DNA of 61,114 nt from a virus (lineage: Duplodnaviria; Caudoviricetes), in the IMG/VR virus record IMGVR_UViG_3300044691_000260, positions 1 to 61,114 of that record. The stretch is one strand, 5' to 3'. Positions 1 through 5,000 of this stretch are shown in pieces. Under the pieces are notes generated by a model that was not told where the DNA came from, did not search any database, and saw only the letters and a program-made list of their open reading frames with translations. The stretch's first letter is position 1, and every line of letters starts with the position of its first letter. Both the position numbers and the translations under genes were made by a program.

Positions 1-127
1 GTAGGTCCGACACCCCTACTGCCGCCCCGTCGGAGGCGGCACAAGGCCCCCGGTACTCCCTGGCATCCCCTGCCCAGGTTGAGTATCGGGGGCCTGCTTT
101 TTTGTGCCCAAAATCAGATGTTCAGCA
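1..127. repeat. Terminal direct repeat, identical to 60988-61114 (circular contig overlap)
   Basis: First and last 127 nt are identical. 127 is a common assembler k-mer, so this is most likely assembly overlap of a circle. Confidence 0.95.
44..103 (+). terminator. Intrinsic terminator after holin / end of late operon
   Basis: aggcccccggtactc...gagtatcgggggcct stem followed by gctttttt; lies just downstream of the holin stop across the circular junction. Confidence 0.75.
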
Positions 128-605
128 CCGCGCCGTAGGTGCGCGCGGTGCTCAGAGAGACCACCTGCGGGACACGGTTCGCGACGGACACCTGATACTG
201 AGTGTGCCCGTCAGGCACGCCGGCGACGGCGAAGTCGATGTCGCACCCCCACACGAACCCTGTCTGCGGCGTGACAGCGGCGTCGCTTGCCCCGAGCGTG
301 CCCGTCGCGACGGTTCGCCCGCTCTCGTCCCGCACAGTGACGGTGGCACCCGTAGCGAGGTCGGAGTAGCTGCCGATCCCGTAGCAGCCGCCGTCCCCGT
401 TCGCCTGGATCAGATCCCCACTGTTCAGCATCGACACCGCCCCGTTGAGTGTGAACGTCGTCGGTGAGGCCGGTGCCGCCACCACGGCGGCCACCGTGCC
501 ACCGACCACCAGGATCGCGGCGCCTACCGCGGCGAGCATCCACCCGCGCCGCGGACGACGTGGTGCCGGCTGGGTGTCCGTGGGGTGGTCCTGGATCTCG
601 GTCAT
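114..605 (-). CDS. Membrane-anchored/secreted hypothetical protein
   Basis: Basic stretch plus hydrophobic helix (RRGWMLAAVGAAILVVGG), then a beta-rich domain with two Cys; high GC3 codon usage. Confidence 0.75.
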   Translation of the reverse strand: MTEIQDHPTDTQPAPRRPRRGWMLAAVGAAILVVGGTVAAVVAAPASPTTFTLNGAVSMLNSGDLIQANGDGGCYGIGSYSDLATGATVTVRDESGRTVATGTLGASDAAVTPQTGFVWGCDIDFAVAGVPDGHTQYQVSVANRVPQVVSLSTARTYGAVLNI

Positions 606-698
606 GGCTGGGCTCCTGGTTGCGGGCGCCCGATGGGGCGCGCTTGGTATGTACTCGCGTTGACCATGTGGTCTGTTACCGGCGTGACCGGAATGTGA

Positions 699-969
699 CA
701 GGGCCCGGTAGGCGGGGGGTGCCTACCGGGCCCTGACGTTCCCGCGGCTGGTGACCTGCAGGCGGAACTGCCCAGCCGCGGGCTGGAAGTGCGCCGCGGG
801 GGGTCGGCGCACCGATCTGGGGAAGACGGGGCCCCGGGTGCGTGCAGCGCGGAGCCAAGGCCAACCGGATCGGGCAGCGCCGGGGGTGTTCAAGCTGTCC
901 GATCCGGTTGGGGTTGAACACCCAGTCGGCGCGGCGCCATCGGGAGGCGGGCGCAACCGACCGGGCAGC
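699..969. ncRNA. Candidate structured RNA / attenuator (several strong hairpins and interleaved inverted repeats)
   Basis: Stems 699-713/721-735, 741-751/772-782, 789-796/805-812, 861-878/894-911 and 884-893/914-923; no convincing ORF. Confidence 0.5.
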
Positions 970-1199
970 TATCGGGGGTGGGGCTTGTACATCACGGCGC
1001 ACAGGTTGCAGTCGAAGAGCGGTTCGTGGCGCGTCTGCGTGCCGACGATGCGAACGAGCTCGCACACGAACTCCACGGGAGTGCCGGTGTAGGGCAGCGC
1101 GGGTGGTAGGTAGGTCAGGTGCCTGACTCCGCCGAACGTCACCGGCATGTAGCAGGTGGCGGTGTCGAAGGCCGTTTCTCGGTGCACGGTGATGGTCAT
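969..1199 (-). CDS. Small hypothetical protein with C-terminal CxxC
   Basis: 76 aa; ATGA overlap with the upstream ORF, SD-like ggagga. Confidence 0.65.
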   Translation of the reverse strand: MTITVHRETAFDTATCYMPVTFGGVRHLTYLPPALPYTGTPVEFVCELVRIVGTQTRHEPLFDCNLCAVMYKPHPR

Positions 1200-1336
1200 T
1201 CGTCGTCCTCCTGCTCGGTGACGGAAGCCGCGTCCTGCTCGACCTTCGCCTGCTCGACCTTCGCCTGCTCGTCGTCCTGTGCGGGTTCGTACGGTTCGTC
1301 GGGACCAGCGCCAGAGTTACTGAACCGGCAACTCAC
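1196..1336 (-). CDS. 46-aa acidic peptide with EQAKV tandem duplication
   Basis: GTGA overlap with the upstream stop and ATGA overlap with the downstream start; 15-bp tandem repeat at about 1233-1270. Confidence 0.55.
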   Translation of the reverse strand: MSCRFSNSGAGPDEPYEPAQDDEQAKVEQAKVEQDAASVTEQEDDE

Positions 1337-1572
1337 GACGTGCCACTTTCGTGGTTGGAGATGCGATACCGCTCGGCGATCGCGTCCCGGACAGCCATGC
1401 TGAGATCGATGGCTTCCTTGATGGGCAGAATGATCGGGTCGCCTCCGCCGATGGAGATTCCCAGCCAGGTGCCATCCGGTCTTTCCAGGAGCCCCATGAT
1501 CACCGAGACGGTGCTGCCATCGAGCGCCTTGCCCTGAACTGGCCAGGTGGTGCGCCACTCGTAGTCCGCCAT
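1333..1572 (-). CDS. Hypothetical protein divergent from the XRE regulator
   Basis: ATG at 1572 preceded by cgggagg SD; 79 aa (MADYEWRTTW...). Confidence 0.7.
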   Translation of the reverse strand: MADYEWRTTWPVQGKALDGSTVSVIMGLLERPDGTWLGISIGGGDPIILPIKEAIDLSMAVRDAIAERYRISNHESGTS

Positions 1573-1594
1573 CCCGTAGCCTCCCGATAGGGCC

Positions 1595-1710
1595 TGGTTC
1601 CATTGGTTCCACTTGGTTCCGTGTCTAGTATCGTCGCGGAACCAAGTGAGACTCAATGACCCAAACGGGTGACCTTCGAAGAGGGGCAAAGAGTGCGTAT
1701 CCTGTGGTTC
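1595..1710. promoter_or_regulatory. Divergent promoter/operator with TGGTTCC repeats
   Basis: TGGTTCC at 1595, 1604 and 1614; perfect 12-bp inverted repeat 1610-1621/1637-1648; TATCCT -10 at 1698-1703, 7 nt before ATG 1711. Confidence 0.7.
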
Positions 1711-2547
1711 ATGGCCGGAACCACGAAAAGCATCGCGCTAGGCGCCGAGCTGCGTAAGGCACGGCAAGCCGTCAAGGGACTGACGCTAAGGGCGCTCGCC
1801 GAGCAACTTGGCATCTCCCACCCGACAGTCGGCCGATGGGAGCGCGGGGAACGAGTCCCGGCGCCAGAAGACATCTCGGCGTACCTAACCCAGGTCGGCG
1901 CGCCAACTGAAGTCCGGGACGCCCTGATCGAGATGTCCCGCGACGCCGACAGCGCCCACTGGCTGTCCATCGGGATCCCCGACCAAGGGCGGCAACTGCG
2001 GGCTCTGCTCGACCTTGAGGCGTCCGCGACCCGCGTCACCACAGTCAGCCCGCTCCTGGTTCCGGGCATGCTGCAGACTGGGGCTTACGCGCGCGACATC
2101 ATGGTCGAGGGCGGTGTCCCCGCCGACGAGATCGAGACCCGTGTCGCGGTCCGCAGCGGGCGTCGCGAGGCCATCACTCGTAGCCGTGAGCCTCTGAAGC
2201 TGAGGGCGTTCATCGGTGAGGGTGTGCTCGAGCAGTCCATCGGCGGCCCGGACGTCATGCGTGATCAACTGCAGGCGCTGATCGAGCACGGGGAGCGGCC
2301 GAACATCGAGCTGCACGTGATCCCCGCGGCGACCAGTTGGCACGCCGGTTTGGAGGGCCCGTTCTCGCTCTACGAGTTCGCTGACCGCGAGACCGTGGTC
2401 CACGTCGAGAACCGCGTGAGCGGCCTGTTCATGCCCGACGACGGTCGGGCGTATGAGAGTTCCCTACCCAGGGTTCAGGAAATCGCGATGAGCCCGGCTG
2501 AGACGGCCAGGCTCATCGCCAAGGTGTCATCAACGGCGAGGAGATAA
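1711..2547 (+). CDS. XRE-HTH + DUF5753 regulator (WhiJ/Scr1-like)
   Basis: LGAELRKARQ...ISHPTVGRWERG HTH; LVPGMLQTGAYAR, FIGEGVL, IGGPDVMRDQL and MSPAET motifs typical of DUF5753. Confidence 0.9.
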   Translation: MAGTTKSIALGAELRKARQAVKGLTLRALAEQLGISHPTVGRWERGERVPAPEDISAYLTQVGAPTEVRDALIEMSRDADSAHWLSIGIPDQGRQLRALLDLEASATRVTTVSPLLVPGMLQTGAYARDIMVEGGVPADEIETRVAVRSGRREAITRSREPLKLRAFIGEGVLEQSIGGPDVMRDQLQALIEHGERPNIELHVIPAATSWHAGLEGPFSLYEFADRETVVHVENRVSGLFMPDDGRAYESSLPRVQEIAMSPAETARLIAKVSSTARR

Positions 2548-2552
2548 CAGGG

Positions 2553-2747
2553 ATGACGATAGCGGACAGGTCCGACACCTGGTCGAAGTCGAGCTACAGC
2601 ACGAACACCGACAACTGCGTCGAGGTCTCTCACGGCGCGCTGCCAGGTGTTGGAGTGCGGGACACGAAGGACCGTGCGGGCGGCCACCTGGCCGTCCCGG
2701 CGTCGAGCTGGGCAGCATTCACCCTCGAGGTGAAGGCTCGCAGCTGA
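2553..2747 (+). CDS. DUF397 protein (BldB/Scr2-like)
   Basis: WSKSSYS...NCVEV...VGVRDTKD...WAAF signature. Confidence 0.92.
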   Translation: MTIADRSDTWSKSSYSTNTDNCVEVSHGALPGVGVRDTKDRAGGHLAVPASSWAAFTLEVKARS

Positions 2748-2765
2748 CCAGTCGGTGAGAGCAGT

Positions 2766-2809
2766 AGAAGGCCCAGTGCCCCAATGAGAGGGGGCACTGG
2801 GCCTTCTTT
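2766..2809 (+). terminator. Intrinsic terminator after DUF397 gene
   Basis: 17-bp perfect stem agaaggcccagtgcccc / ggggcactgggccttct followed by tt. Confidence 0.8.
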
Positions 2810-2856
2810 GTGTGCGTATGTGGACCGTTTACGGACCTTGGTGGGTGGGAGAGACG

Positions 2857-2891
2857 AAAACGCCAGGCCGGAAGTTGCTCCCGACCTGGCG
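2857..2891 (-). terminator. Terminator replacing the host tRNA terminator upon integration
   Basis: cgccaggccgg / ccgacctggcg stem with a T4 tail on the minus strand, directly downstream of the tRNA 3' fragment. Confidence 0.7.
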
Positions 2892-2896
2892 GTGCA

Positions 2897-2934
2897 GTGC
2901 CCTCAGCAGGACTCGAACCTGCGACCTAGAGATT
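2897..2934 (-). mobile_element. attP: attP core = 3' half of a tRNA gene (probably tRNA-Arg)
   Basis: Minus strand AATCTCTAGGTCGCAGGTTCGAGTCCTGCTGAGGGCAC: anticodon 3' stem, T-arm GGTTCGAGTCC and acceptor strand; adjacent to the integrase. Isotype is inferred from the acceptor stem only. Confidence 0.85.
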
Positions 2935-3059
2935 CTCAGGAGACCATCTCGATCAGTCCCGATTAGCGTGTCCACCTGGTAAAGCAGTCCCACCTAGCCA
3001 CGATCAATCGCACCTATTCACGATTGTAAGTGGACCATTAATGGACCACGGCTCGAACC

Positions 3060-4289
3060 TCAACCCTCGACCTGGTCGAACAGCGACTCCAACGAGTCCG
3101 CTGTCCCTGCGTTGGCGACGCGCTTCCGCCGGTAGTGCTCCTCAACCACCTTCGCGCTGTTCCCCAACTGGTCCCCGATCGCCGTCGACACGATGTCCGC
3201 GTCACCGAGGTGCGTGCCGACCGTGTGCCGGAACACATGCGAGCTGACGTCCTCGTAGCCGATGGCGTCGCACGCCGCCCGGAACCGCTTCCCCACATTC
3301 GACGGATCCACCAACGCACCATTCCACGCCGGGAACAGGACACCCCCGCCGGACTCCAGTTTCCGCCGGCGCCACATCTCTACCGACCACATCGGCACCA
3401 CCAGAATCAGCGCTGACCCGTCGCCCTTCCGCTCTGGCACCCGCACGATCCCCTGACCGGCGATCCGGACAAGGTGATGGTCGACAACAACCCGGCGGGT
3501 CTTCAGGTCGACGTCTTCGCCGGTGACCGCGAGGATCTCGCTGATCCGCACACCAGTGGCAAGCATGCCCTCGGCGATGTCCGGCAGGTCTGTCCACGCC
3601 CGAGCCCTCGGGCCCAACTGCGACACGTCACCCTTGCCCGCCGTGTACGTGCGCAGCTTCGTCATGAAGTCCGTGCGCTGTGCTGGCTCGAGCACGGTGA
3701 TGGCTTTCTTCTTCCCGCCACGCTCGACAGTGTCGACCTGCTTGACCGGGTTGATCCCCTCCGCGCCTGCGAACACCGCACCGTGCCGGACCCCGTACCC
3801 GCAGATCCCACCGAGGACGACCTTCAGGCGTTTCGCTGTGGCGAACCCGACGTCGTCGTGCACGGTCTTGATGCGCTCGTCGCAGCACGTCACGGACACT
3901 TCGCTCGCAGACAGCTCGTACATCGCGTCACGGATGTAGTTGTTCACGGTGTCGCGGTAGTCGTACAGCGTCTTCGGCGCGCGCAACCCGAGGTTGACCT
4001 TCCGCTCGAGGTCGGCGAGCCACTTATCTGCGATATACCCGAACCGGGTGTCACCGGAGAACCCCTTCTTCCCGGTGGCCTCGTTCTTCAGCCCGGTGAT
4101 GTGCTCCTTCAACGCGTTGATGGCCTTCGTCTCCGAAGCCCCCCGCCTACGAGGCCGACGGGTCCGGCCGTTCCCCATCCGGACACGGGTGCGCGCCTCA
4201 TAGACAGCGGGCCGGCCCTTCGCCTTCTCGGCGATCAAGGTGACGTGGATCGTGCCGTGCGCGCCGATCGGTGTCCGCGGTCTAGCCAC
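3060..4289 (-). CDS. int: Tyrosine integrase
   Basis: TGVRISEIL, HVFRHTVGT, LGNS and EHY catalytic motifs; 409 aa. Confidence 0.95.
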   Translation of the reverse strand: MARPRTPIGAHGTIHVTLIAEKAKGRPAVYEARTRVRMGNGRTRRPRRRGASETKAINALKEHITGLKNEATGKKGFSGDTRFGYIADKWLADLERKVNLGLRAPKTLYDYRDTVNNYIRDAMYELSASEVSVTCCDERIKTVHDDVGFATAKRLKVVLGGICGYGVRHGAVFAGAEGINPVKQVDTVERGGKKKAITVLEPAQRTDFMTKLRTYTAGKGDVSQLGPRARAWTDLPDIAEGMLATGVRISEILAVTGEDVDLKTRRVVVDHHLVRIAGQGIVRVPERKGDGSALILVVPMWSVEMWRRRKLESGGGVLFPAWNGALVDPSNVGKRFRAACDAIGYEDVSSHVFRHTVGTHLGDADIVSTAIGDQLGNSAKVVEEHYRRKRVANAGTADSLESLFDQVEG

Positions 4290-4295
4290 GGTGAC

Positions 4296-5000
4296 CTACA
4301 GAACGCACAGCGACAGCAGCGGGCGCAGCCTGATCGGGAGGAGACATTCCGGGCCGCTCTGGGTGGGTCGGAGTGTCGGGGGCTCTGTTGTCGACGACGT
4401 GGTCACGGTCGACAGCGACGTGACCGGCAGTGGCAGCGTGTAAGAGAGGGTAACGGCGGTGGTGGAAGCACTCGTGGTGGGTTCCGGTGTAGGTCTCTGC
4501 GTGGCCGCGGGGGATGCCGTCGATCTGCCCGGTGGTGCCGATGTGGGCCCGGGGTTTGTGGTGGTGGTGCCGGAACTGGTCGGTGCAGTTGATGTCGTGG
4601 CCCGCAGTGTGGTCGAGTTCGGCGGCAGCGCGGTCACTGTGTCGGGTCCGGTGGAGAACGGGATGGTGATTGCGGCGATCGCGGTGACCACGGCTGCCGT
4701 GCCTGCTGTAAGCGCTATCCCGGTCGTCATGGAATGCCCCTTCGTCCAGGTGACAGTGGCCACGGGGGCGAGCAGGGACACGAGCCAGAGCCGGCGGCGC
4801 AGCTCCTGCGGCGGGAGAGCCGCCAGCCGCTCGGCTTCCTCGTGTGCGTCGAGTCTGCGCTTCAACTTCCTTAGCTTGGTCAGCGCGTAGGCACTGAAGG
4901 CGCTGAAGGCGAGAAGTACCAGGGCAAAGCTGAGTAAGAGGAGATACTGGGGCATACCGACACAGTCGCCCTCTGGGTAGTGGTTGTGACACTTCTCCAT
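4296..5000 (-). CDS. Membrane protein with Thr/Pro-rich stalk, in the immunity operon
   Basis: Hydrophobic helices, long T/P/S-rich region, C-terminal Cys pair. Confidence 0.7.
   Translation of the reverse strand: MEKCHNHYPEGDCVGMPQYLLLLSFALVLLAFSAFSAYALTKLRKLKRRLDAHEEAERLAALPPQELRRRLWLVSLLAPVATVTWTKGHSMTTGIALTAGTAAVVTAIAAITIPFSTGPDTVTALPPNSTTLRATTSTAPTSSGTTTTNPGPTSAPPGRSTASPAATQRPTPEPTTSASTTAVTLSYTLPLPVTSLSTVTTSSTTEPPTLRPTQSGPECLLPIRLRPLLSLCVL

Follow-up and report, generated by a model that had tools for sequence, protein, structure and literature searches.

What is the role of the densely structured stretch at positions 699-968, which separates co-directional genes in the genome of a temperate phage? 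The DNA analyzed here (the window, meaning the whole stretch of 61,114 nt) represents a complete temperate phage with relatives in Amycolatopsis, and the 11 runs listed as holding its sequence are all soil or freshwater metagenome DNA. Within this 61-kb genome, region 699-968 lies between a three-gene operon of small ORFs and a membrane-protein gene, all on the minus strand. The operon starts with an ORF79-family small protein (1333-1572, minus), encoded divergently from an XRE regulator with a DUF5753 domain (1669-2547, plus; DUF5753 2.1e-51, HTH_31 2e-13) and its DUF397 partner (2553-2747, plus; DUF397 6.9e-19), and a repeat-rich divergent promoter region at 1573-1668 is separate from the structured stretch. 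The ORF79-family protein shares 29% identity (E 5e-5, pairwise) with a 76-aa protein found between the XRE gene and the hairpin in other Amycolatopsis loci. It is followed by an acidic small ORF of 46 aa (1196-1336, minus), whose GTG start overlaps the preceding stop codon and whose own stop overlaps the ATG of the last gene, ORF76 (969-1199, minus); the three genes are translationally coupled. ORF76 is without a known family and, in a collection of 5.8 billion proteins, matched only two, itself and the homologue from the close relative L007. On the far side of the structured stretch, a 163-aa protein with one predicted membrane span is encoded at 114-605 (minus); it is 92% identical to its L007 homologue, and its Pfam matches were all sub-threshold. 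The spacer in front of this gene (606-698, minus) carries an AGGAG 8 nt upstream of the ATG. A consensus scan for sigma-70-like promoters returned 0 sites in window positions 1-3000.

The non-coding region 699-968 comprises an array of five G+C-rich hairpins, each independent of the others; relatives have eight. Read along the minus strand, it opens with hairpin T1 (920-966), whose stem base lies 3 nt from the ORF76 stop codon and which has a C-rich apical loop. Hairpin T2 (856-916) follows after 3 nt; its 23-nt arms, 856-878 and 894-916, are 87% complementary and extend the A/A' pairing of the original prediction, and its loop holds a run of five C. Beyond a 42-nt linker (814-855), H3 (788-813) consists of a perfect 8-bp stem, 789-796/805-812, with a closing G-U pair and a six-C run in the loop; H2 (741-782) combines an 11-bp outer stem, 741-751/772-782, with a 4-bp inner stem; and H1 (699-735) has a perfect 15-bp stem, 699-713/721-735, and a C-rich 7-nt loop. 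H3, H2 and H1 are separated by 5 nt each, the array stems range from 9 to 23 bp, and the last hairpin ends 93 nt upstream of the membrane-protein gene. The three perfect hairpins of 15, 11 and 8 bp that had been proposed from the letters are all present (699-735, 741-782 and 789-812), as is the B/B' complementarity (884-893 with 914-923, 10/10), in which B is placed in the T2 loop and B' overlaps the T1 base by 4 nt. The second A-like copy said to abut the stop codon of ORF 969-1199 was likewise recovered, at 950-969, with 75% identity to 859-878 over 20 nt, a likeness between the T1 5' arm and the T2 3' arm. The hairpin at 920-966, directly after the ORF76 stop, was absent from the earlier list.

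The hairpins and repeats are far from chance. Folding of positions 606-968 gave z-scores of -5.35 on the plus and -6.71 on the minus strand, and none of 100 shuffled sequences folded as well. These 270 nt hold four of the 12 distinct perfect hairpins of the 61-kb genome (stem of at least 10 bp, loop of at most 25 nt). When 270-nt segments were ranked by GC-corrected folding energy, those overlapping the region came 1st, 3rd and 4th of 677 on the plus strand, and none was among the top eight on the minus strand. Taken alone, B/B' is weak evidence, because the region is so G+C-rich that a perfect 10-bp inverted repeat at this spacing would arise by chance with a probability that we roughly estimate at several percent.

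Homologous copies of the array were found at two places in one Amycolatopsis MAG (G001), with eight hairpins each and with stems kept by compensatory changes. The copy on contig C180 shares exactly positions 699-968 with the window and is flanked by unrelated genes; the 606-698 spacer is kept only in L007 and not in this copy. As judged from these sequence comparisons, the module is a discrete unit with sharp boundaries, H1 being its last hairpin and 3' boundary. Its history is mosaic: the window is 93.5% identical to L007 over positions 1-845 and 71.5% identical over 847-2735, with the breakpoint at about 846, inside the module. In alignments with both relatives, L007 and L012, an 80-nt deletion in the window has eliminated hairpin 4 altogether, along with the greater part of hairpin 3 and the 5' arm of hairpin 5, leaving the 42-nt linker between T2 and H3 where the relatives have three hairpins. 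Across the three homologues compared (window, L007 and L012), 97.3% of 292 cells were paired, and compensatory changes keep the hairpins: seven of 109 pairs had changed on both sides, a number reached by one of 500 shuffles, with slid controls giving 0-2. Variable columns were rarer in paired than in unpaired positions (17% vs 29%, Fisher p = 0.03), and the same held for variation between L007 and L012 (8.7% vs 20.3%, p = 0.003).

The individual hairpins contribute differently to this pattern. Among the three homologues, T2 has three pairs changed on both sides, H2 one U-A to C-G double change and H1 one C-G to G-C flip, together with one A-C mismatch in L012, where conservation of the H1 loop is also absent. 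The H3 stem is invariant, with a 2-nt indel in its loop; T1 has one internal G-U pair conserved in all three; and a 14-nt stretch of the H2 loop is kept in the diverged G001 copy on contig C161. T1 begins 2-4 nt after the upstream stop codon in the window, L012 and a further locus, L069, and in L007 the ORF reads through T1. The number of hairpins per array varies among loci (1, 2, 3, 5 or 8). Module-length matches were found neither in the 146 other genus genomes nor in the remaining 400 genomes sampled from the family; 14 other genus genomes matched over short stretches only, 30-71 nt in length. A blastn search of window positions 1-3000 against the phage collection returned only a 38-nt tRNA-Arg piece. 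Among viral contigs, ORF76 as a single-protein query found nothing, ORF76 and ORF79 alignments found only the L007 contig, and the exact pattern of the most conserved block likewise hit only the L007 contig there and none of the metagenome contigs. The membrane-protein query led to one viral contig and one MAG, both carrying the same prophage. In the contigs of runs X3-X6, those of relatives break within the module, and a few low-depth variants were seen.

T1 stands out as a member of a wider family, which we defined by a covariance model, R2. This model gave 140 matches in 81 of 147 Amycolatopsis genomes, with at most five T1 copies per genome. The window itself scored 46.2 bits (912-973, minus; E 2.6e-7), a match that exists partly by construction because the window row belonged to the training alignment, and had no plus-strand match. 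Eighteen independent family members scored 50-62 bits, and R2 was strand-specific, with 50-66 bits on the forward and 25-37 bits on the reverse strand of the same sites. In the 18 members that had no part in training, 98.7% of the 234 cells were paired and five of 13 pairs (24 cells) had changed on both sides, a cell number that 0 of 500 shuffles reached and for which slid controls gave 0, although covariance-model matches are by their nature selected for pairing. Two alignments, A11 with 16 rows and the model-based A13, replaced a MAFFT alignment (A10) of ten short hairpins with misregistered 3' arms. G-U cells outnumbered all other non-standard cells by 15 to 4 in A11 and by 8 to 3 in A13, both sets being biased toward pairing; in A11, 10 of the 16 rows were chosen by a pattern that forces complementarity in part of the stem.

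In its genomic setting, T1 usually lies on the downstream side of small genes whose transcription diverges from that of an XRE regulator. Among the best 30 T1 family loci, 11 of which are training places, an XRE homologue lies within 1.5 kb upstream in 20 and is divergent in 18, which bears out the earlier proposal of a link to XRE/DUF397-type loci. The gene order of the window, XRE on the plus strand and then ORF79, the acidic ORF, ORF76 and T1 on the minus strand, was matched in 18 of these 30. Moreover, 21 of 64 ORF90-family genes have an R2 match within 2.5 kb, in 21 of 21 cases downstream and on the same strand, which speaks for a sense orientation of the hairpin. The C-rich loop motif of T1 and its flanks are kept while the stems change, and elsewhere in the family the distance from the end of the ORF to the hairpin is 26-51 nt or more. 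Six T1-family loci were without any match near threshold in Rfam 15. The non-T1 hairpins of the array are lineage-specific additions, among them a diverged duplicate of T1 and one hairpin resembling host-gene terminators.

In the reading that we prefer, at a probability of roughly 0.55, the array is a cluster of transcript-end or insulator hairpins without a U-tract that acts on the sense RNA. It would function as RNA transcribed in the sense of the two flanking genes (minus strand), where the hairpin stack would stop or pause RNA polymerase or, alternatively, would block 3'-to-5' exonucleases after termination or cleavage farther downstream. The message of the upstream small ORFs would thereby be stable and sharply bounded, and read-through into the membrane-protein gene would be kept low, in which case expression of this gene would have to rely on start signals of its own within 606-698. 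We infer an RNA 3' end at the array, the minus strand as the acting strand for H1-H3 and an effect on the downstream gene; the putative gating of read-through into the membrane gene at 114-605, already part of the original prediction, is plausible. Hairpin clusters near stop codons have been proposed as termination units, with passages of PMC8355165 specifying hairpins that start at most 80 nt from the stop codon and neighbours less than 15 nt apart; with T1 3 nt after the stop and gaps of 3, 5 and 5 nt, the array conforms to this layout except for the 42 nt between T2 and H3. According to part of PMC8269248, transcript ends with strong hairpins and low read-through are unusually frequent at the XRE-DUF397 units of Streptomyces. 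The G+C-rich hairpin of a canonical terminator is present five times over. In addition, H1-like stems occur in 15 of 147 genomes (two for the reversed-pattern control), and one type, near-identical to H1, lies directly after host-gene stop codons and is followed by T-rich tails. A model of the H3-H2-H1 segment (R1), run across the genus, found only such H1-like hairpins.

Several observations temper the view of the array as a transcript end. None of its stems is followed by a U-tract, the 10 nt 3' of each stem on the sense strand containing at most three U, and a terminator scan of positions 1-3000 flagged only 2861-2891 (minus) and nothing in the array. The title of PMC3993855 states that the RNA polymerase of mycobacteria needs a U-tract at intrinsic terminators, which argues against simple intrinsic termination at these hairpins. 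Five to eight hairpins also exceed the needs of a terminator, which counts against our main reading, and termination does not account for the conservation of the T1 apical loop motif and flanks. Furthermore, the plus strand folds as well as the minus strand (110 vs 117 consensus pairs), two internal mismatches on the minus strand would be G-U pairs on the plus strand, and genome-wide the plus strand is the stronger outlier, leaving the strand of H1-H3 uncertain.

Given the conservation of its loop, T1 may, as a tentative proposal of low probability, be a cis-regulatory RNA motif, not described before, that belongs to the XRE/DUF397 (WhiJ-type) loci of Amycolatopsis and its prophages. Such a motif could be read by a protein or another RNA and control processing or read-through from the small divergent genes into variable downstream effectors, in which case the five to eight hairpins of the phage array would amount to an enlarged form with several copies, serving to gate the membrane protein tightly.

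A rather unlikely explanation holds that the array yields a stable non-coding RNA or a 3'-UTR-derived small RNA, whose C-rich apical loops bind a protein or else base-pair with G-rich (Shine-Dalgarno-like) stretches in phage or host messages, in the manner of the actinobacterial 6C RNA. Unpaired minus-strand bases are 43-48% C and 17-18% G, runs of five or six C occupy the apical loops of T2, H3 and H1, and across the T1 family it is the C-rich loop motif with its flanks that persists while stems change; yet a C-rich strand gives C-rich loops by composition alone, and the H1 loop is not conserved in L012. The best sub-threshold Rfam matches were two to the Streptomyces small RNA Scr3202, which has a C-rich loop; they scored 25.2 and 23.8 bits, where the threshold is 52. 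The 6C family, which we take to be RF01066, gave no match at E up to 10, and with 0 promoter-like sites in 1-3000 the C-rich loops are the sole resemblance, so that membership in this family was rejected. In PMC6486639, 6C is reported to bind targets via C-rich loops.

The mutually exclusive stems at the heart of the original prediction fared less well. In that scenario, which we consider improbable, the choice between A/A' and B/B', possibly coupled to ribosomes that terminate at the neighbouring stop codon, would make the element a conditional attenuator or RNA switch that decides on read-through into the membrane gene. The perfect B/B' match in the window, the likeness between T1 5' arm and T2 3' arm, and the near-equal energies of the two folds on the plus strand (-43.5 vs -42.1 kcal/mol) would suit such a device, and with the stop codon only 3 nt from the T1 base a terminating ribosome would cover the T1 5' arm. 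In both L007 and L012, however, B/B' retains only 4/10 Watson-Crick pairs, and the same two segments share no complementary run of at least 6 nt, so that the data do not support a conserved switch. When B/B' is forced, the fold is less stable than that with A/A' by 7.4 kcal/mol on the minus (sense) strand and by 1.4 kcal/mol on the plus strand. The spacing between stop and hairpin is not kept either, given the L007 ORF that runs through T1 and the longer distances elsewhere in the family, and three to six more hairpins follow T1 and T2, whatever these do. Rfam 15 offered no riboswitch or non-coding RNA family at gathering score in window positions 1-5000 and 600-1000; its best hit was the 25.2-bit one to Scr3202. 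In sum, the element is real and conserved, and the switch architecture is peculiar to this one genome.

We also give little credence to a role at the level of DNA, in which the hairpins would be protein-binding palindromes, a recombination linker of mosaic phage modules or a small mobile palindromic element, with RNA folding incidental. Sharp module boundaries with unrelated flanks on C180, a mosaic breakpoint and an 80-nt deletion inside the module, variable array length and the about equal folding of both strands are what such an element might show, and symmetric half-site changes in a protein-binding palindrome would mimic compensatory changes. Against it, T1 family members show strand specificity and without exception share the orientation of their upstream genes, G-U is tolerated far more than other mismatches, the palindromes (37-60 bp) are longer than usual operators, and a separate repeat-rich divergent promoter region exists at 1573-1668. 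Copy number is also low: the whole module occupies two sites of a single genome and was found in none of the 146 other genus genomes, and T1 has five copies or fewer per genome. The module ends lack a visible target-site duplication, and their imperfect inversion stems only from the likeness of the two terminal hairpins. A REP/BIME-like or MITE-like repeat was rejected on these grounds of copy number (two module places in G001) and missing duplication. On layout, we dropped a retron (no reverse transcriptase nearby), CRISPR (no tandem repeats), a cos/pac site (terminase genes about 35 kb away) and arm-type integrase sites (attP 2 kb away).

A hidden protein-coding frame across the region is extremely improbable: open frames do cross it in the window (676-1065, minus, 129 codons; 751-1092, plus, 113 codons), as well as in L007 and L012, but frames this long are expected by chance at such G+C by our estimate, neither has a Pfam or PHROG match, and no frame is conserved across the module indels of 1, 2 and 80 nt, which are not multiples of three. 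GC content by codon position is flat in the region, without third-position bias (0.71/0.74/0.80 vs 0.58/0.47/0.88 in ORF76), and the 51 substitutions between window and L012 show no periodicity (16/17/18 by position mod 3). By these sequence measures, region 699-968 is non-coding, as had been claimed.

Few regulators of actinomycetes are as abundant and as poorly understood as XRE-DUF397 pairs, which in Streptomyces have been tied to development and antibiotic production, as stated in parts of PMC8269248, PMC10364602 and PMC6262351. A strand-specific hairpin family that lies outside Rfam and holds a fixed place in XRE loci, with matches in 81 of 147 genomes, offers a concrete starting point for learning how such units are delimited or controlled through RNA. 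A naturally "amplified" form of it, the phage array, is a candidate portable insulator for high-G+C hosts.

Among known systems, the array resembles the hairpin-cluster or U-tract-less ("I-shaped", "HS-U-lack") ends of G+C-rich bacteria outlined in passages of PMC8355165 and PMC8269248, which share stable G+C-rich hairpins a few nt apart, right after the stop codon and without a U-tract. It differs in extent, comprising five to eight hairpins over 270-350 nt where the clusters in that portion of PMC8355165 average three; moreover, it is kept as a unit beside unrelated genes and has a conserved T1 loop with conserved flanks. Judging by its title, Ingham et al. 1995 describes early-region terminators of the actinophage phiC31 without poly-U, similarly hairpins of an actinomycete phage that lack a U tail. 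With 6C RNA (PMC6486639) and Scr3202 (RF02833) the array shares stable hairpins with C-rich apical loops and a high-G+C Gram-positive setting; unlike them, it lies between genes of one strand, had no promoter of its own found, and left 6C unmatched and Scr3202 at 25 bits vs 52. Canonical intrinsic (L-shaped) terminators are likewise G+C-rich stem-loops after a gene, and H1 is nearly the same as the host post-stop hairpins with T-rich tails, but the five hairpins of the array have no U-tract, whereas the hairpin-plus-T-run terminators that the phage uses at 45-103 and 2861-2891 do have T-runs. Intercistronic stabilising hairpins are exemplified by the REP elements between malE and malF and by the hairpins of the puf operon. 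In contrast to REP elements, the array is not a dispersed high-copy repeat; in common with both, it places stem-loops between co-directional genes, where they would protect the upstream message and uncouple expression. By analogy, we think that the array may work like these intercistronic stabilising hairpins.

The element under study is a hairpin array on the minus strand (699-968), and every component listed for it in the original prediction was recovered in place. In 5' to 3' order on the minus strand, its five hairpins are T1 (920-966), T2 (856-916, formed by the predicted A/A' repeat), H3, H2 and H1, of which T1, beginning 3 nt past the stop codon of the upstream gene ORF76, comes in addition to those already listed. 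Folding was unusually stable, with z scores of -5.35 on the plus and -6.71 on the minus strand and 0 of 100 shuffles as stable, and 4 of the 12 perfect hairpins of the whole genome (stem of at least 10 bp) fall within these 270 nt. On the plus strand, 270-nt windows overlapping the array ranked 1st, 3rd and 4th of 677; on the minus strand, none was among the top 8. The claim that the element is non-coding holds, as GC content by codon position is flat (0.71/0.74/0.80), the 51 substitutions split 16/17/18 by position modulo 3, the indels measure 1, 2 and 80 nt, and the long open frames across the array had no Pfam or PHROG match.

The surrounding phage is temperate and, at 61,114 bp, forms a complete IMG/VR record whose terminal repeat measures 127 bp. 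It carries a minus-strand tyrosine integrase gene (3060-4289), adjoined by a 38-nt tRNA-Arg fragment (2897-2934) that is 94.7% identical to a phage tRNA-Arg gene. ARAGORN found no whole tRNA in the window, and the fragment is likely the attP core, which would imply integration into a host tRNA-Arg gene. Large plus-strand ORFs at 35-61 kb are read as putative structural and lysis genes. We infer Amycolatopsis as the host from the closest relative, a prophage whose MAG bears the title Amycolatopsis sp.; loci L007, the related prophage copy on contig C96 of MAG G001, and L010 represent the same prophage, 1 nt apart. Upstream of the array, the minus-strand ORF79 (1572-1333), a 46-aa acidic ORF (1336-1196) and ORF76 (1199-969) overlap in their start and stop codons and form one operon, divergent from an XRE(DUF5753)/DUF397 pair (1669-2747). 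The intervening region (1573-1668) is rich in GGTTCC/GGAACC repeats, with a perfect 12-bp inverted repeat (1610-1648) among them, and may serve the XRE regulator as its operator. Downstream of the array, a minus-strand gene (605-114) encodes a 163-aa protein that spans the membrane once; it converges with the late genes, which end in a hairpin-plus-T-run terminator at ~45-103. A perfect 10-bp hairpin (124-152) lies inside the 3' end of this gene, just before its stop codon. At the other end, the ATG is replaced by ACG in L007 (2998-3066, equivalent to window 605-537), the first in-frame ATG, GTG or TTG there is the codon matching window Met23, and 4 of the first 22 codons differ, all with amino-acid changes, so that the true start in both phages may be an internal Met.

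The module as a whole is rare, being found in three places: the window, L007 and a second G001 copy on contig C180 (L012). Within the genus, 15 of 147 genomes matched, with matches longer than 71 nt in G001 only, and the single match among 401 genomes of a family-level sample was again G001. Identity between window and L007 is 93.5% over 1-845 and falls to 71.5% over 847-2735; this breakpoint at ~846, within the array, coincides with an 80-nt stretch missing from the window (L007 2689-2769), and the array may be a recombination joint between phage modules. The C180 copy, 85% identical to L007 across the module, has exactly 699-968 in common with the window and nothing further. Its flanking proteins are unrelated to those around the window's array, comprising a GntR/UTRA regulator upstream on the opposite strand, a 90-aa ORF whose stop codon abuts the module and, after the module, a 222-aa membrane protein and a tyrosine integrase. 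This island (L032, C180 10466-15441) and a prophage end in another species (L100, G068:C1 8400-12973) both lie near an aldehyde-dehydrogenase gene with very similar N-termini and may share an integration neighbourhood. For the three copies, RNAalifold gave eight separate hairpins in L007 and L012, of which the window retains T1, T2, H3, H2 and H1. In the local helices, 97.3% of 292 cells were paired, and 7 of 109 pairs were changed on both sides, a level reached by 1 of 500 shuffles (slid controls, 0-2); columns were variable in 17% of paired compared to 29% of unpaired cases (p = 0.03). As evidence of covariation among homologues, named in advance as a check on the fold, these results alone are suggestive, not decisive: only three copies were compared, and over half of the module two of the three are closely similar.

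A broader comparison came from T1. On G001 contig C161, a paralogue of the 90-aa ORF (89% identity) precedes a diverged form of the module with three hairpins (one T1-like, one with a C-rich loop and one H2-like, keeping 14 nt of the H2 loop), and T1-like hairpins recur 3' of other members of this ORF family. A loose T1 pattern matched 47 sites in 39 of 147 genomes, with 16 matches for the reversed control. Among the 16 hairpins of the training alignment, 98.1% of 208 cells were paired and 7 of 13 pairs double-changed (0 of 500 shuffles), a pair count that is partly circular, as 10 of the 16 rows were picked by a pattern forcing part of the stem to be complementary. The covariance model built from these hairpins (R2) matched 81 of 147 Amycolatopsis genomes, at 140 sites in total and at most five per genome, and only 9 of 151 genomes of a family-level sample, with weaker scores (E up to 1e-4). 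It is strand-specific, scoring 50-66 bits forward compared to 25-37 bits for the reverse strand of the same sites; the window's T1, itself a training row, scored 46.2 bits on the minus strand. For 18 members outside training, 98.7% of 234 cells were paired and 5 of 13 pairs (24 cells) double-changed, the number of cells being reached by 0 of 500 shuffles and slid controls giving 0; as model matches these members are selected for pairing, and varied stems with matching partners are plain in their sequences. Besides a C-rich motif in the apical loop, the family conserves a few nucleotides that flank the stem on both sides. At least four places (including L101, L115, L123 and G106:C1:7611657-7611815) carry tandem pairs with a spacing of 85-125 nt, indicating that multi-hairpin arrays arose more than once. 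Six family loci had no Rfam match, and the family is absent from Rfam 15; we did not meet it in the literature searched, where no search was aimed at it, and do not claim it as unpublished.

The neighbourhoods of these hairpins bear out the predicted link to the XRE/DUF397 pair. Among the best 30 of the 140 loci, 11 of them training places, an XRE homologue lies within 1.5 kb upstream in 20 and is divergent in 18 of these; DUF397 follows beyond the XRE gene in 7, an ORF79-related small protein stands between XRE gene and hairpin in 9, and the 90-aa ORF family is present in 5. Conversely, of 64 matches to that ORF family, 21 have a family hairpin within 2.5 kb, in all 21 downstream on the same strand (7 of these are training places). 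The G068 prophage end, with the same layout as the window's, runs from tail genes and a GH25 lysin through an opposite-strand PadR-like gene, T1, an acidic small ORF and a 90-aa-family ORF to a divergent XRE-type gene and then host genes. The array is real, conserved and non-coding, and T1, its first unit, is a member of a hairpin family associated with XRE loci in Amycolatopsis.

As to function, the likeliest role, to which we give a probability of roughly 0.55, is that of a boundary: the array would mark the end of the small-ORF transcript and shield the membrane-protein gene downstream. For T1, action on the sense strand is favoured by the strand-specific model, the co-orientation with upstream genes, the excess of G-U over other non-standard cells (15 vs 4 in the training alignment, 8 vs 3 in the members outside it) and an internal G-U pair kept in all three module copies; for H1-H3, either strand may be the acting one. 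Of 147 genomes, 15 contain H1-like stems (2 for the control). One type of these stems lies directly 3' of the stop codons of an orthologous host gene, with T-rich tails after it. Among the 15 Amycolatopsis genomes of L039-L053, at least 10 conserve a perfect ~31-nt palindrome that shares its outer stem with H1, at apparently one orthologous locus. An alternative that we keep alive is a 6C-like small RNA, since C makes up 43-48% of the unpaired bases on the sense strand and several loops consist of C-runs. Less well does the proposed switch between mutually exclusive stems survive: the alternative stem B/B' (884-893 with 914-923) pairs 10/10 in the window and 4/10 by Watson-Crick pairs in both L007 and L012, which offer no complement of at least 6 nt between the equivalent segments, and imposing it on the window is unfavourable by 7.4 kcal/mol for the sense strand and by 1.4 kcal/mol for the plus strand. 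The spacing from stop codon to T1 is not kept either, as the L007 ORF76 homologue (2341-2616) has GAG for the window's TAG stop and is 15 codons longer, reaching the T1 3' arm, and many family members have 26-51 nt or more between the end of the upstream ORF and the hairpin. There is therefore no support for a conserved switch, and one peculiar to the window's lineage could still exist.

Returning to the reading as a boundary, T-rich tails are absent from all five window hairpins; the phage has hairpin-plus-T-run terminators at 45-103 and, on the minus strand just before the attP fragment, at 2861-2891. Mycobacterial RNA polymerase, according to the title of one study, needs a U-tract (PMC3993855). 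Clusters of hairpins near stop codons, three on average, have been proposed as termination units (PMC8355165), and a Streptomyces study describes a class of structured transcript ends lacking U-tracts; these could be terminators of the I-shaped type or result from trimming after Rho-dependent termination (PMC8269248). Given the missing tails and these reports, we call the array a transcript-end or barrier element and not a proven terminator. The same study reports for Streptomyces XRE-DUF397 units an unusual abundance of strong bidirectional hairpin ends at which read-through is low (PMC8269248). With a perfect 17-bp hairpin 3' of the DUF397 gene (2766-2807) and the T-run hairpin at 2861-2891, the XRE-DUF397 unit of the window is framed by strong hairpins in the way described for Streptomyces.
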